This document shows, piece by piece, positions 44,401 to 50,400 of a DNA stretch of 64,000 nt. Location of the stretch: the NCBI GenBank assembly GCA_963805945.1, contig CAWDVP010000006.1, positions 352,001 through 416,000 of the forward strand, in the 5' to 3' direction. Every line of letters starts with the position of its first letter. Within the stretch, counting starts at the first letter, position 1. This DNA is from Vulcanimicrobiota bacterium (GTDB lineage Bacteria > Vulcanimicrobiota > Vulcanimicrobiia > Eremiobacterales > Eremiobacteraceae). The position numbers are program-made.

Positions 44401-47400
44401 CCGTCAGACACGATCACTTCGACCACCCGGCCCTCGCGGACGTGCTCGCGGGCCGCGGGGAACTGCCCCACCACCTCGCCTTTGGCGACGCGGTCGTCCG
44501 GACGGTGCGCGATGACCCGCAGGCTGACGTGCGCCGCCGCGGCGGCGCGCTGCGCGTCGTCGAGCTGCTGGTGCGAGAAATCGGGCAATTCCACGGGGTT
44601 GCCCGAGGGCACGAGCATGCGGTACGCCGTCAGCGCGACGAGCGCGACGATCAGCGCGAGGACGCCGATCGCCATCGGCAGCGCATACGACCGGTCGACG
44701 CGTGCGGGAGCTTGTCGTACCGGCTGCCGAGGGCGCCGGCGAGGAGGCCCGCCGCTCACGCGAGGGCTTCGAGCACGGCGGTCGGGATGTCGGCGTTGGA
44801 AAAGACGCGGGTCACGTCGTCGTGATCCTCGAGCGCATCGAGCAGCTTGAGGACGGCAGGGGCTTCGGCCGCCGTCACCGTCACCGCGTTCTTAGGCACC
44901 AGTTCGAGCGTCGCAGAGGTGAGCGAAAGTGAGTGCGGCTGCAGCAGCGTGCGCTCGATGATCCCGCGCACCTGGCCAAGCGCCTGCGCGTGCGTGATGA
45001 TGTCGGCGCTGTCGCCCTCGGCCTGCACGTCGACGACCCCGTCGACGACGGCGCACTCAAGGAGTTCTTCTTCTGTGATGCCAGTGATGGGGACGACGAT
45101 GACGCCGCGCTCCTCGAACTGCCAGCCCACGGAGCCGGTCTCGCCGAGGTTGCCGCCGTTGCGCGAGAAGACGTAACGCATCTCCGATGCGGTCCGGTTG
45201 CGGTTGTCGGTCACCGCGTCGACGACCACCGCCACGCCGCTCGGGCCGAAGCCCTCGTAGCGCATCTCTTCGAGCGCGTCGCCCTTGCCCGCGCCGCCGG
45301 CGCGCGCGATCGCGCGCTTGATGTTCTCCATCGGCATGTTGTTGTCGCGCGCGTTTGCGACCGCCATCTTCAGCTTGAAGTTCGCCTCGGGATCGGGTGA
45401 CCCGGCGCGCGCGGCGACGATGATCTCTTTGCTCAGCTTGGTGAAGAGCTGGCCCCGCTGGGCGTCCACCTTGCCCTTCTTCAGCTTGATGTTATGCCAC
45501 TTGGAGTGACCCGACATGCGCTTACGCCTGCGGCCGCTGCGCGGCCAACGCGGGGTTGAGCGACATGCCGAAGCGCAGCCGCAGGATATCGCGGATGGTC
45601 CGCAAGATGACCATCGGCGTCGCGCCCTTCGAGGCGCCCGTCGTGCGCGGATAGTGGTGCACGCCCACCTCGCTCACCGCGACGCCGCGCCGTTTCAGCT
45701 TGATGAGCAGCTCCGAGCTGATGAAGGCGCCGTTGGATTCGAGGTCGAGCCCATCGAGCGCCTCGCGCCGGAACATCTTCCAGGCGCAGTCGATGTCGCG
45801 GACCCGCAGGCCGAACATGGTGAACACCACCAGCCGATAGGTCTTGGCGATGAACAGCCGATGCCACGGATCGTTGCGCTTGATGCGATAGCCGGCGACC
45901 ACCGGCGCCGAGACGGCGAGCGCGAGCGTCGCCGGCAGCTCAGCCAAGTCGAACTGGCCGTCCGCGTCGGAGAAGAATATGAGGTCCTTGGTGGCGCTCG
46001 CGAAACCCGTGCGCAACGCGGCGCCGTAGCCTCTGTTGACACCATGCCGCACGAGCCGGACGTGCGGATCCTGCGCCGCGAGCCGCTCGACGATCGCGGC
46101 GGTGCCGTCGGAGCTGCCGTCGTCGACCACGATGACCTCATAGTCGCGTCCGCTCGCGCGCGCCGCCTCGAGCGCGTTGCCGACGGTGCGCTCGATGATG
46201 CCCTCTTCGTTGAACGCCGGGAAGAATATCGAGAGCGAAGGTCGCACGTCGGCCATGGTCAGATCCAGCCGATGCAGTCTTGCTTCTGGTCGGGCGCGCA
46301 GCCGCTCGGCAGCCACATGTGGTTCTTCCACGTCTCGTAGCGGATGGGCACCGCGCCGAGGATCGGATAGAAGTAGGCGAACATCACGATGCATAGCACC
46401 ACGTATGTGGGTATCGCCCAGCGCACCGCCCGCGGCCACGCGGGCTCCGCGTCCGGCCTGTTCGCCCAGCGCCACAAGCATAGCAGCGCGTAGGTGGTGC
46501 ATAGGCACACGAGCGCGGTGTTGTTGTAGATGTTGTATTGGAAGTCCACGCGCGGCGACCCGACCCAGGGCAGCCAGTGCAAGAACATCGCGGCGACGAC
46601 GATCAGCATTCCCTTGTGGCGTTGGCGCCACGCCAAGAACATCGAGACCGGCACCGTGATGAGCCCCGCCAGCCACACCGAAGGATTGGGCAGCGCGGTC
46701 ACCTCGCCGACGATCTGCACCGGATCCCCGACATGGGTGAAAGTGTGATAATAGTACGCCACCGGACGCACGTCGAGCGGCCACACCCACCACGGCGAGC
46801 CATAGATATGCGTCGCCTTGAGATCGTGGTGATACGCGTACATGCTGTGCTGCATGTTCAGCATGTCCTGGAACGTCCGGCCGATGCTGAAGTACGGGAT
46901 ATAGGTCAGCACGTACAGCGCGAACCCGAGGAACAAGATGCCGGCGAGCAGCAGCGGCAGCCGCGGACCCAGCGGATTGCCCCACAGCAGACGGCGCGGC
47001 AGGTCGACATCAAGCTTGAGGCTGTGGTCGCGCCAGCGCCAGTAGACCGGCAAGAATCCTTGCATCGTCACGAGCAGCGCGGCGAGCATGATCGTGGCGA
47101 GATCGAAGATGCCGTACCATTTGCACGCGGTGACGGCCCCCAGCGAGATGCCGGTGAGCACGAGCCACGTGCCCCACTGCTGCTTGTCGAAGAACTGGAC
47201 GCCCGCGACCGCGCCGCGCAGCGTGCCGTCCGCCTGCCAGCGCACCGCGACATCGCCTTCGGTGAGCGCGACGCCGTCCTGCGTGAAGCTCTCCTTCTGC
47301 ACGCCGTCGTCGGAGCTCGCGGCGCGCAGCGGCCGCTGTTGCCCCGAGGCGAAGGTGACCATGCCGCTTTCGACGACCGCGCCGTCGGGATACACCACCG

Positions 47401-50400
47401 TACGTCCCTCGCGCCGTTGCATCAAGAGCCGGCGCGCCCAGACGACGCAGAACGCCGCGAGCAACGCCATGAAGCCGAGGTAGATGTGCCACGAGATCTC
47501 CGGCGGGTGCTTGGCGGGATCGTAATACGCCACTTCGAGCGCGATGAACACGACGAGCGCCACGAACACGCCCACCGTGGCCCAATTCGAGGCGACGTCC
47601 GGATAGCCGCTGTCGCGCCGCACGATCTGGCCGGACGTGAAGAAGCGATACGAGCAATACAGCGCGCAGAGCGAGAACAGCGCGATGAAGATGTCGGGCA
47701 GCGCGGTGCGCGCCTGCACGAAGAAAAATCCGCTGCTCATCAGCAGCAGCGACGCGACGACGGCGGCGCCGGTGGACGAGAACAGGCGCTTCGCGAAGGC
47801 GTAGAGCACCGGGATGGTGAGCGTGCCGGCGATGGCGGAGGCGACGCGTGAACTGACCGGGTCGCCGATCTGGTTCTTCACGAAGAAGTCGCCGAAGCCG
47901 ACGCCGTTGCGCACCAGCCACGCGCCGAACGCCGGCAGGAATATCTGGAAGAACCATGACGTCGCCGCCATGCACAGCTTCACCAGCGGCGGGTGCGTCC
48001 ATTCGAAGACGTCCTGGTGCTGCAGATATTCCTGCGCTGAGCGCGCGAAGTAGATCTCGTCGAAGATGCGCTCGTTGGGCGCCGCGATGCGATAGAACAG
48101 CAGCAGCGCCGTCGCAGCGGTGAGGCCGAGGACGATCCAGCGGTCGAGGCGCGTGAGCCCGATGAGCCCCTCGAGCAGCTGCGGCGCGAGCCGCGGCGCT
48201 TTCTTCGCAGGCGGCGCCGTGAGCCAGCCCCGCACCCACACCTCGAGCTCCTCGACGAGATAGATGGCGGCGACCGCGAAGAAGCACAGCACGTTGACCA
48301 GCGACAGCGAGTGGACGAGCAGCGGGTTGAGATCGGCCGCGGGCGTCTTGAGGTAGTACAGCCCGTAGAACAGATTGACGATAAACGTGCTCGCGAGGGC
48401 CAGCGCGACGATGCGCTGCACCGCGCCCAGCGGGCGCGCGAAGACGACGAGCACCACCGCCGGGAAGATATAGCGCTCGTGCATGCGCGTGAGCAGCATG
48501 AAGTAGCCGAGCATGACGAGGAAGCAGGCGAACAAGAAGCTGTTCTCGGCCGTCTCGCGGCTCGCGTCCGAACCGGTCGTGCGCCATTGGCGCAGCGCTA
48601 TCGCCGTGGTGAAGCCGACGAAGATCGCGACGCCCCACGCCCACAGCGGCCCTAGCGCGCGGCCGAAGAGCATGACCGGCAGCAGGTCGGATTGCCAGAA
48701 GTCGTTCTTGACCGAGTAGAGGTTGAAGGCGTTGACCGAATTGTAGGGATAGCCGTCGCGGCCGCGCGCGTACGTGCCGTAGAGCCAATGCAGCAGCGCG
48801 ATGGGCGACTTGTCCGGCGCGAACAGCACCGCGCCCGCGTAGGCGACCGCGACCCCGATGAGCGGGATCGCGAGGAGCCGCCATGTGAGCCCTTGCCGCC
48901 GGATCTGCCATATCAGCAGCAGCGGCGCGATCGCGACCGGATGCGGCTTGATGAGCACCGCGAACGACAGCGCCGCCCACGCCCACTCGTAGCGGCCGGT
49001 GAGCGCGAGGTACATCGCCCAGATCATGAACACGACGGCGACCGAATCGGCCTGTCCCCAGTACGCGGAGAGGAATCCGATGTCGGGATTGAGCGCCGCG
49101 ATGATCGCCGCGCCGACCAGCGCGACCTGCGTCGACCACGAGCGCCGCATGATCAGGTAGACAAGATAGACGATGCCGACATCGGCGAGGATCGCCGGCA
49201 TCTTCACCGCGACGATGAGCGTGTCGAAGCGATTGGCGAGCGGCACGAGCAGGTGGTGGAAGCCGGCCGCCGCCCACAGGATGAGCATGTAGCCGGGCGG
49301 GTAATCGATGAAGCCCGCATGCGAGTAGAATCCGCCGGGGCCATATTTCGCCAGCGTGAGGAGCCACGATTCGAACGTGCTGATGTCGGCCGAATGGCCG
49401 ACGAGCAAGATCGGAAGCAGCCTTAAAAAGAACGCCGCCGCGCAGAGGGCGGCGATGTTCCTTATCTCTTTGATATCAAGCGGGCCGCCCGGAATGCCGG
49501 GGCCTGACGCAGTGGGCATCGCCGCCTGCGGGCGCCCATCGGCGCCGGCCTTTGCCGCAGCCTTAGACGCGGCGGGATTGCGCTGTGACACGGCTACTTC
49601 GTTTCTCCCGAGGACGGCGTGAGAACCTGCTCCGTGGCGCGCTTACGCGGATGGTGTGCGCCACATACGCACGAAATCGCGCAACGGCGCGAAGCCTTCC
49701 GCGCGGTCCATCGCGCGATCGAAGTAGCCGGCGGCCGAGCGCCTAGCGGCGTCGCGCGCGCCGCAGCGCTCGAGCGCGGCGCGCACCTCTTCTCTATACG
49801 ATGTATCGGCAGCGATGGCAGCGCCCTGCGGTCCGTATGCCTTGCGCAGCAGGTCCCCAGCCCCTTTGGGATCGTGCTGCATCGCCCACACGATCGGAAA
49901 CGTCTGCTTGCGGCGCGCGACGTCGCCGCCATCCGCCTTGCCGGTGCGCTCGCTGCTGCCCCAGATGCCCTCGACGTCGTCGTGGATCTGGAATCCCAGG
50001 CCAAAGGAGCGCGCGACCTCGCCGCAGCGCACGACGTCGGCGTCGCTTGCTCCTACAGAGCTGCGCGCGCCGAGCTTCGCGGCGCAGACGAACAGCGCCA
50101 CGGTCTTGCCCTCGGTCATCGCGAAATAGTCGTCGATCGAAAGCGGCGGCGCGCCCTCCATGGCTAGATCGAGCGCCTGGCCCTCGCACATGCGCACGTG
50201 CGCCTGTGCGAGTTCCTGCGTCAGCGCCTGGATGATGGCCATGCCTGCCGGCGCTTCATGCAGCGCCAAATACGCCAGCGCGCCGATCGCGTCGCCCGCG
50301 TTGATGCCGTGCGCCAGCCCGTACTTGGTCCACATCGTCTCCCGCCCGTGACGCAGTCGATCGCCGTCTTCGATGTCGTCGTGGACGAGCGAATAGTTGT

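Follow-up and report, generated by a model that had tools for sequence, protein, structure and literature searches.

We found that a single gene in the window (the whole 64,000-nucleotide stretch of DNA analysed) is a genuine ORF and encodes two complete GT-C glycosyltransferases in one membrane protein. In the reading developed here, which we give about an even chance of being correct as a whole, the C-terminal PMT half would prime Ser/Thr linkers and the N-terminal half would extend them, a PMT and PimE-like pair being combined in one chain. Locus comparisons support the fusion as a core gene of the class Vulcanimicrobiia, carried in a fixed housekeeping locus with the following features.

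46259..49591, minus strand: tandem GT-C fusion gene, 1110 aa, GTG start (ORF, Pfam and model)
48227..49474, minus strand: N-half GT-C domain, residues ~40–455 (fold, profile search, conservation)
46262..48157, minus strand: C-half PMT/GT39 domain without MIR domains, residues ~479–1110 (Pfam, fold, motif mapping)
47177..47629, minus strand: ~150-residue insertion in the PMT domain (gap between aligned blocks; strands in the model)
46682..46810, minus strand: EL4 C-terminal hairpin, residues 928–970 (counterpart of the MtPMT WW-like module)
45522..46256, minus strand: soluble GT2, 244 aa, beginning 2 bases past the fusion stop
49643..50581, minus strand: short-chain polyprenyl (GGPP-type) synthase, directly upstream of the fusion, after ispH
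43647..45517, minus strand: yebC and a triple-PASTA protein, downstream of the fusion (housekeeping context)

Re-checking the ORF and its Pfam matches recovered both the 1110-aa frame and the domain positions of a preliminary description: GT87 at 97–359 (25.8 bits; cut-off 25), PMT at 491–653 (76.5 bits) and PMT_4TMC at 907–1096 (47.3 bits; cut-off 32.4). An alternative start at residue 25 gives the 1086-aa form of the database gene call, whose AlphaFold2 model had a mean pLDDT of 85.6 and a pTM of 0.75. Sequence and model support the C-half as a bona fide PMT-type domain with conserved functional residues. Besides exceeding the Pfam cut-offs for PMT and PMT_4TMC, it showed a fold nearer to yeast Pmt2 (Z 32.0, rmsd 3.1, 417 aligned) than to ArnT (Z 23.1), with Z 30–32 to fungal Pmts against ~21 to OSTs. 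Its best profile match was to fungal Pmts (E 5e-19), and the repeat search again returned these as PDB matches with IFDE aligned to VFDE, as described earlier. D511-E512, D633, H928, W937, Y946, P970, R1014 and F1017 correspond to MtPMT D74/E75, D176, H353, W362, Y371, P396, R441 and Y444 (equivalents from PMC12331936, mapped by motif with an Arthrobacter PMT as a proxy). The domain has a DE pair in EL1 (D511-E512), a second acid in EL2 (D633) and RxxY/F in EL5 (R1014/F1017); the catalytic DE motif previously noted is therefore present, and residues essential in the mycobacterial PMT are kept. There are also departures. The MtPMT D176 position is Glu in 37 of 40 class sequences, and the equivalent change in MtPMT left slight activity only (PMC12331936). 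The hairpin at 928–970 keeps three of the five residues of the WW-like signature (W362, Y371 and P396) and has W for P359 and A for L392, both of which are also missing from the Arthrobacter PMT. The insertion of ~150 residues, where fungal Pmts have a short loop, adds two helices and a small beta-rich domain for which an Atlas search gave no usable match. The actinobacterial Pmt equivalog model NF058602 of NCBIfam gave only 42.5 bits, its cut-off being 800.

Fold, catalytic residues and acceptor enrichment together make it very probable that the PMT domain, with D511 as base, attaches the initial sugar to Ser/Thr residues in Pro-Ser/Thr-rich linkers and lipoprotein tethers. Repeats of P[ST]x3 were found in 30 of 408 exported and 3 of 1095 cytoplasmic proteins (OR 29), and control P[AVG]x3 repeats in 10 of 408 and 12 of 1095, respectively (OR 2.3). 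Also, PxP middles were filled by Ser/Thr in 27% of cases in exported proteins vs 12% in cytoplasmic ones. The enrichment reported earlier was thus seen with independent gene calls, although its exact counts (74/643 vs 33/1554) were not reproduced. In the phylum's other classes, the median density of the Pro-Ser/Thr DNA pattern was 4.6/Mb in genomes with PMT_4TMC (n=38) vs 1.0/Mb in those without (n=31), and p=0.035 by genus, where related genomes are not independent; the class median was 7.6/Mb. Some PMT-negative genomes, G021, G026 and G050 among them, have such repeats as well. The organism looks diderm by its gene content (a TonB receptor, and Omp85 just above cut-off), as had been proposed.

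For the N-half, fold comparison gave Z 26.5 to ALG3, 24.2 to PIG-M, 23.6 to ALG6, 22.6 to PIG-U and 20.4 to PimE, so PimE was rejected as the nearest solved structure. ALG6 was the top Foldseek match, and the profile search against the PDB gave PIG-M at E 3.5e-7 and ALG6 at E 0.068. GT87 scores for the fusion were 25.8–27.2 bits, just over the Pfam cut-off, and 27 N-half homologs were split among GT87 (14/27, E<=0.05), PMT_2 (10/27), Alg6_Alg8 (8/27) and ALG3 (3/27). The earlier assignment to a GT87 mannosyltransferase keeps this Pfam match; the domain lies at least as near to ALG3, to PIG-M and to ALG6, a glucosyltransferase, and sequence and model suggest that a GT87 mannosyltransferase is only one option. 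Among 96 aligned N-halves (39 class and 57 outside), D69, W76, the YPP of the D96-YPP motif, Q180, and K215 and P216 of the K215-P motif were invariant and the H371-E-R-Y motif was present in 95. D69 aligns with D69 of ALG6, its catalytic base (PMC12653191), and the HE motif aligns as well; PimE uses D58/K195/H322 (bioRxiv 2024.09.17.613550). These features place the N-half with ALG3/ALG6/PIG-M/PimE-type domains, the Lys and His equivalences coming from ALG6 sequence alignment and PimE analogy rather than from coordinates. In M. tuberculosis, priming is carried out by PMT and elongation by PimE (PMC12331936), whose substrates include both lipids and mannoproteins (PMC12331936; bioRxiv 2024.09.17.613550). 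By analogy with this pair, and from fusion and adjacency, we are inclined, with somewhat more belief than doubt, to think that the N-half, with D69 as base and the donor phosphate bound by K215 and H371, would add a further hexose to the one that the PMT half attached.

Every one of the 131 class genomes sampled had a match to the fusion (best E no higher than 1.2e-61), extending the earlier count of 31 of 31; separate searches found the N-half alone in 130 of 131 and PMT_4TMC in 131 of 131. Both halves lay in one frame in all 40 fetched class loci, one of which is frameshifted in the C-half. The polyprenyl synthase was a neighbour in 37 of 40 loci, and yebC and the triple-PASTA gene were each found in 37 of 40. 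Outside the class, 49 of 80 named loci (from Bacillota, Nitrospirota, Atribacterota and Geobacteraceae) were fused and 14 had both halves as separate genes. The fusion is therefore not special to the class or to diderms, and the earlier suspicion that it occurs in Bacillota was correct. At least five phyla showed fusion or same-locus pairing, with the halves in either order. In the tree, outside fusions formed a clade (98% SH-aLRT) apart from the class clade (100%). GT2 was a neighbour in 36, GtrA in 30, and one or both in 42 of the 80 outside loci; class loci had GT2 in 8 of 40 and no GtrA, which occurs elsewhere in genome G000. The component families are already known and many public genomes contain the same fusion, annotated with generic names; as in the preliminary search, we found no paper on such a GT-C fusion.

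This distribution bears on a different explanation, that the two halves are independent transferases drawing on a common polyprenyl-phosphate-sugar pool, the PMT half adding a single sugar and the N-half decorating a lipid, LPS or another envelope polymer. We regard it as a serious minority possibility. Standalone N-half homologs occur without a detected PMT (a Bacillus record, and phylum family f12 with the N-half in 5/5 and PMT_4TMC in 0/5), so a PMT partner is not needed for this domain to act. Also, its nearest solved relatives use lipid-linked acceptors, one of them being a glucosyltransferase, and the GtrB, GtrA and GT-C layout of outside loci is typical of envelope-polymer decoration. 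However, the two halves are fused or paired repeatedly, across five phyla or more, and stay together in 40 of 40 class loci, and PimE itself handles lipids as well as mannoproteins.

In the favored prime-and-extend reading, the protein would be an inner-membrane glycosyltransferase with two active sites, acting on exported proteins. Homology suggests that a cytoplasmic DPMS-like GT2, encoded elsewhere, would make polyprenyl-phosphate-mannose from GDP-mannose, and the product would be flipped and then used by the C-terminal PMT domain in the periplasm. This class-wide gene matched Pyrococcus DPMS at E 6e-60, was found in 196 of 201 phylum genomes, is single-copy in the class and is frameshifted in the present assembly; it also occurs in genomes without PMT_4TMC and is therefore not dedicated to PMT. 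As to the Ppm synthase proposed earlier, the class-wide DPMS-like gene is not the Ppm1-like one at C2:404.9k, whose range is largely limited to the genus. In four genomes scanned, a mycobacterial-type mannose-1-phosphate guanylyltransferase was the best NCBIfam match of a further enzyme (319–361 bits, under the cut-off of 440), whose best PDB match is named UTP-glucose-1-phosphate uridylyltransferase; a search of 51 class genomes found no cupin-type ManC. GH125 (399 bits) and a PIG-V-like gene, both named previously, are located elsewhere in the genome, and several other GT-C genes could use the same donor. The genomic part of the proposed protein O-mannosylation capacity, Pro-Ser/Thr acceptors and a mannose-donor pathway, is accordingly encoded. 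Mannose seems the most likely first sugar in the class, a view that we hold with fair confidence.

The GT2 adjacent to the fusion is polyprenyl-phosphate sugar synthase-like, its nearest families being ArnC, PgfS and PpgS, all far below cut-off. It was rejected as Ppm1/DPMS, being nearer to ArnC (E 1e-22) than to DPMS (E 2.5e-13) among solved structures and confined to one family: it adjoins the fusion in 8/8 loci of the window's own family (f1) vs 0/32 other class loci, with ortholog-level matches in 26/30 f1 genomes vs 0/30 others. It could supply a second donor in f1 if priming, extension or both used a sugar other than mannose (glucose, galactose or a HexNAc), an alternative that we consider rather improbable. 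Galactose is present on CelA and cellulosome linkers. ALG6 heads the Foldseek list of the N-half, and GT2s beside outside loci are closest to sll0501/GtrB (E 5e-94) and PgfS (252–317 bits, under cut-off). Streptococci add Glc or GalNAc to Ser/Thr-rich disordered regions with GT-Cs that work alongside a GtrB- or PgfS-type synthase (PMC12041528), but these GT-Cs are YfhO-type, not PMT. Besides, class genomes encode a DPMS-like synthase in single copy together with an enzyme resembling GDP-mannose pyrophosphorylase, and 32 of 40 class loci have no GtrB beside the fusion.

A reverse order, in which the N-half first assembles a short lipid-linked oligosaccharide that the PMT half then moves en bloc onto protein, is very unlikely. 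ALG3 and ALG6 do extend lipid-linked glycans ahead of transfer, and the class PMT half has an altered D176 position and a large insertion; however, characterised PMTs all take a single sugar from a lipid monophosphate donor (PMC12331936), and the C-half is much closer to Pmts than to OSTs. A non-catalytic, PIG-U-like N-half serving as scaffold or lipid-binding subunit would fit the presence of PIG-U among its fold matches but is less likely still. Against it, 95–96 of 96 sequences from several phyla keep the base Asp as well as the Lys and His at the phosphate-binding positions.

A 2025 study states that bacterial protein O-mannosylation appears limited to Actinomycetota (PMC12331936). A PMT with an intact catalytic set, a DPMS-like synthase and abundant Pro-Ser/Thr acceptors among the core traits of a diderm class would widen this range. 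The fusion also provides a Rosetta-stone link between PMTs and bacterial ALG3/ALG6-like GT-Cs, with D511 and D69 as single-residue handles separating priming from extension. Only tentatively do we suggest a self-contained prime-and-extend O-glycosylation machine, whose two unlike GT-C sites pass the glycopeptide on, fixed in an abundant diderm soil class and scattered in Bacillota, Nitrospirota and Atribacterota. If true, PMT-type O-mannosylation would exist outside Actinomycetota, the many bacterial proteins of the large ALG3/ALG6-like family would gain a named function, and candidate enzymes would be at hand for the glycosylation of Pro/Thr linkers in secreted enzymes of clostridia and paenibacilli. 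The surprise is tempered by the known part families, by mannose-initiated O-glycans already known in Gram-negative Bacteroidota (PMC12871550) and by a Bacillota GT39 already known to be needed for protein glycosylation (PMC6151902).

Among known systems, the C-half resembles actinobacterial Pmt (MtPMT, Rv1002c; GT39) in its PMT and PMT_4TMC core without MIR domains, its catalytic equivalents and its proline-rich Ser/Thr acceptors, and differs in the replacement of D176 by Glu in 37/40 class sequences, the loss of P359 and L392, the insertion and the low NCBIfam score (42.5/800). The whole protein recalls the MtPMT and PimE pathway, with an elongating GT-C of PimE fold, but one polypeptide comprises both enzymes, in a diderm host that does not belong to Actinomycetota. 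By both sequence and fold, the C-half matches fungal Pmt1/2/4 best, and it has RxxF as in ScPmt1; unlike them, it has no MIR domains, and its partner is a dissimilar GT-C fused to it rather than a second Pmt. The N-half shares the fold of ALG3, ALG6, PIG-M and PimE (Z 20–27), with the EL1 base Asp, DYPP, KP/KQ and HE aligning with ALG6, but identity to each is 11–14% and Pfam families are split; these enzymes belong to families GT58, GT57, GT50 and GT87, respectively. Caldicellulosiruptor bescii Cbes_1864 (GT39, Bacillota) is needed to glycosylate exported enzymes with Thr/Pro linkers, such as CelA with its linkers of Thr/Pro repeats (PMC6151902); by its published layout rather than by sequence (556 aa, a CBM-like loop followed by the transferase), it resembles split C-halves (549–592 aa, F5/8 type C and PMT) and, unlike the fusion, is a single GT-C. 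Streptococcal GtrB/PgtC2 and PgfS/PgfM1/PgfM2 also combine a GT2 synthase, a lipid carrier and GT-Cs acting on Ser/Thr-rich disordered regions, with two GT-Cs per locus, but as YfhO-type, separate polypeptides that transfer Glc or GalNAc. Further relatives are fusions of Paenibacillus, Cohnella, Clostridia and Nitrospirota annotated as phospholipid carrier-dependent glycosyltransferase/GT39, which are patchy (at least 18 of 300 sampled genomes of that phylum match, at least two of them fused) and have the same two halves, order and motifs, but carry extra CBM_4_9 and F5/8 type C domains and have GtrB/GtrA beside them.

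The minus-strand open reading frame at 46259–49591 encodes a protein of 1110 aa with more than 20 hydrophobic segments. It joins an N-half of the ALG3/ALG6/PIG-M/PimE type to a PMT/GT39 C-half. The fusion and the features that accompany it are as follows.

46259–49591, minus strand: fusion of the two GT-C halves
47177–47629, minus strand: insertion of ~150 residues in the PMT domain, with a small all-beta domain and two additional helices
45522–46256, minus strand: GT2 gene directly behind the fusion
about 12700–12860 and 15880 (minus strand): extended runs of (SPTATP)n and PT repeats, in open frames of only 157 and 106 aa

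We found that the fusion is real and well conserved. Pfam placed PMT (76.5 bits), PMT_4TMC (47.3 bits) and a borderline GT87 match (25.8 bits, cut-off 25) where the preliminary description had them, and the PDB matches of the protein were fungal Pmts, with IFDE aligned on VFDE as described. The model of the whole protein had a pLDDT of 85.6 and a pTM of 0.75. Protein O-mannosylation with chain extension, by a GT87-PMT fusion that is core to a class of diderms, had been proposed; this is plausible overall, with corrections to the family of the N-half, the sugar and the class-specificity. Two matches fit a diderm host: a TonB-dependent receptor encoded in the window and an Omp85 that barely exceeds its cut-off.

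The C-half is a GT39-type domain, probably PMT-like in its working. Its model (residues 455–1086) matched yeast Pmt2 with a Z of 32.0, compared with 23.1 for ArnT and ~21 for OSTs. In the M. tuberculosis PMT (MtPMT), D74, D176, R441 and Y444 are essential, and a WW-like module of EL4 serves proline-rich acceptors (PMC12331936). Residues of MtPMT were mapped by motif and with an Arthrobacter PMT, using an alignment of 130 C-halves with three dropped for length; the protein has D511/E512, D633, R1014, F1017, H928, W937, Y946 and P970 at the mapped sites, and the positions of MtPMT P359 and L392 are occupied by W and A, respectively. A point against the PMT reading is that Glu occupies the D176 position (D633 here) in 37 of 40 class sequences; the genus of the window keeps Asp, the second catalytic acid of PMTs. 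A further point against it is the model of the actinobacterial Pmt equivalog, which gave 42.5 bits against a cut-off of 800 and so ruled out membership in that equivalog. The insertion had no Pfam match and no usable match in an Atlas search.

Folded alone (pLDDT 81.9), the N-half matched ALG3 (Z 26.5), PIG-M (24.2), ALG6 (23.6), PIG-U (22.6) and PimE (20.4), and Foldseek ranked ALG6 first. It went undetected in a single-sequence PDB search and was detected by profile, which gave PIG-M at E 3.5e-7 and aligned ALG6 end to end (E 0.068) with the DYPP, KP/KQ and HE motifs in register. In the alignment, D69 falls on D69 of ALG6, the base of that enzyme (PMC12653191). D69 and K215 did not vary among 96 sequences, 39 from the class and 57 from outside it, and H371 was kept in 95 of them; D58, K195 and H322 of PimE have the same roles (bioRxiv 2024.09.17.613550). 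The fold matches and these conserved residues suggest that the N-half is probably catalytic, and their conservation rules out a degenerate domain. Because Pfam split the homologs among GT87 (14 of 27), Alg6_Alg8 (8 of 27) and ALG3 (3 of 27), calling the domain a GT87 mannosyltransferase, as was done earlier, is not justified so far. PMT or DUF2029 domains are noted for prokaryotic relatives of the ALG lumen transferases in PMC4973528, whose available part describes no fusion.

By analogy, the PMT half would most likely act in the periplasm to prime Ser/Thr of Pro-rich linkers, to which the N-half would then add a further hexose, the sidedness of both active sites being judged only from loop charges and homology. 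We hold this two-step reading with moderate confidence. In mycobacteria, PMT and PimE perform priming and extension as separate proteins (PMC12331936). The main rival, two independent activities that share one donor, is a less likely alternative; in its favor, the N-half also occurs on its own where no PMT was detected. Such homologs were seen in another family of the phylum (f12; genomes G009, G016, G022, G027 and G031) and at locus L032 (6899–8137); PMT_4TMC was not found in those genomes. L032 lies on NZ_CP093325.1, a Bacillus record of 5.5 Mb that is labeled a plasmid but resembles a chromosome.

Candidate acceptors were counted in the genome under study among 2181 genes called with a codon model, export being assigned by hydropathy. 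Proteins with three Pro-Ser/Thr repeats made up 30 of 408 exported versus 3 of 1095 cytoplasmic ones (OR 29); thus, the enrichment noted before was reproduced with our own gene calls. Control Pro-Ala/Val/Gly repeats occurred in 10 of 408 and 12 of 1095. Ser/Thr between prolines reached 27% in exported versus 12% in cytoplasmic proteins, with enrichment in the exported set only, and many Pro-Ser/Thr repeats follow a signal peptide or lipobox. At the DNA level, the median density of the P[ST]P[ST]P[ST]P pattern was 7.6/Mb in the class. The other classes had 4.6/Mb where PMT_4TMC was present (n=38) and 1.0/Mb where it was absent (n=31), or 4.9 versus 1.1 by genus (24 versus 8 genera, p=0.035). 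Since counts include overlapping matches, kin genomes are not independent and the pattern also abounds in some genomes negative for PMT, this density lends modest support. The two repeat frames in the window, themselves possible acceptors, may be fragments of an exported protein that is frameshifted.

Homologs bear the names Ca. Eremiobacterota, Eremiobacteraceae and Vulcanimicrobiaceae, from which the class name Vulcanimicrobiia was taken. The fusion query matched 131 of 131 sampled genomes of this class (E ≤1.2e-61), in agreement with the class-wide presence claimed earlier; among 69 genomes of other classes, 54 had weak matches and 15 none. The N-half was found in 130 of 131 class and 6 of 69 other genomes and PMT_4TMC in 131 of 131 and 38 of 69, tallies that include genomes flagged unpublished (G128 and G178). 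Ten other-class genomes were inspected, most of which had standalone PMTs of about 390–750 aa; among these ten, G002 had a full fusion and G020 a frame of 1146 aa that matched weakly at its N-terminus. Both halves lay in one frame in all 40 class loci chosen for long contigs, one being frameshifted in the C-half, and the order polyprenyl synthase, fusion, yebC, PASTA, rpe, thiL was common to 37. The fusion is duplicated at full length in several class genomes, in tandem in G099 (locus L152), and others have an extra standalone PMT of 500–620 aa (these genomes being G099, G113, G057, G132, G191, G194 and G125).

A profile search outside the class found many proteins of 900–1340 aa with both halves, some of them extended by domains of the CBM_4_9 and F5/8 type C families. 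Of 567 named loci, the best 80 divide into 49 with a fusion, 14 that encode the two halves in separate genes and 17 with the C-half only, some of the last cut by contig ends. Their hosts were mainly Paenibacillus, Cohnella and Clostridia, along with one fused case in Nitrospirota and split ones in Atribacterota, Geobacteraceae and deltaproteobacteria. Also, at least 18 of 300 sampled genomes of the Paenibacillus phylum matched, at least two with a fusion. These loci rule out a fusion specific to the class or to diderms and bear out the caveat about similar fusions in Bacillota: the architecture is widespread, and fixation in the class is its special feature. A quick tree of 70 of the 130 C-halves recovered the class as one clade (100) and a Bacillota-type set including G002 as another (98); as to the branching among these and the standalone PMTs, the tree is compatible with one fusion event or with two. 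Loci such as L047, L048, L051, L058, L062 and L087 show two arrangements: in Paenibacillus a GtrB-like GT2 and GtrA come after the fusion, often together with a sortase (9 of 80 loci), and in several Clostridia the fusion lies between a UPF0102 gene and a Mg-chelatase-like comM gene.

Three genes were considered as donor synthase, and the ortholog counts for the first two and the count for ManC also include unpublished-flagged genomes G208 and G214. The adjacent GT2, below every NCBIfam cut-off, was nearer ArnC (E 1e-22) than DPMS (E 2.5e-13); it neighbored the fusion in 8 of 8 loci of the window's family and 0 of 32 other class loci, with ortholog-level matches in 26 of 30 and 0 of 30 genomes, respectively, and was ruled out as the Ppm synthase. 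A Ppm1-like gene (contig C2, 404.9k) was ruled out as class donor synthase, close orthologs occurring in 12 of 61 genomes, this one counted. The third, a class-wide DPMS-like synthase (E 6e-60 to Pyrococcus DPMS), was single-copy in 196 of the 201 genomes of the phylum, among them genomes negative for PMT. Here it is frameshifted (contig C6, 521644–522352, outside the window; L155), between rsmE and accD in an 82% complete assembly, probably by an assembly indel, as thiL in the window also shifts frame relative to a congener. Cupin-type ManC was found in 0 of 51 class genomes; a best match to mycobacterial mannose-1-phosphate guanylyltransferase (319–361 bits, cut-off 440) was present in 4 of 4 genomes scanned.

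In the best 80 of 567 outside loci, the partners are GtrB/PgfS-like GT2s (36 of 80) and GtrA (30 of 80). Judging from these partners, and from the DPMS-like and guanylyltransferase-like proteins of the class, mannose would be the likeliest sugar in the class and not necessarily elsewhere. A different sugar is unlikely, with a streptococcal precedent in its favor: GtrB/PgtC2 and PgfS/PgfM1 place Glc or GalNAc onto Ser/Thr-rich regions (PMC12041528). En-bloc glycan transfer, which we rate very improbable, and a scaffold role of the N-half, slightly more so, are less likely than the other readings.

GH125 (399 bits) and a PIG-V-like gene, both previously described, are encoded elsewhere in the genome, the latter beside a GtrA. 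The three-gene cluster of the latter (C6, 26869–30427; L156), which also has a PMT_2-type GT-C, is a putative second extracytoplasmic glycosylation unit. Besides the fusion there are at least eight GT-C-like genes; an AftD-like GT-C (908 aa) with a 693-aa membrane neighbor (C2, 56004–60669; L157) and two DUF2079 membrane proteins (C2, 368472; C6, 251239) were also seen.

Our literature search, with subscription papers outside its scope, found no paper that describes the fusion of a GT39 with a domain of the GT87/ALG type, and none that deals with glycosylation of proteins in Eremiobacterota. Bacterial O-mannosylation is seemingly restricted to Actinomycetota (PMC12331936), and O-glycans of Bacteroidota begin with mannose (PMC12871550). 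In C. bescii, the GT39 protein Cbes_1864 is required for glycosylation of Thr/Pro-linker enzymes (PMC6151902); the available part of PMC3082886 adds nothing on its neighbors. As described, the layout of Cbes_1864 resembles the split C-halves of the fusion family.
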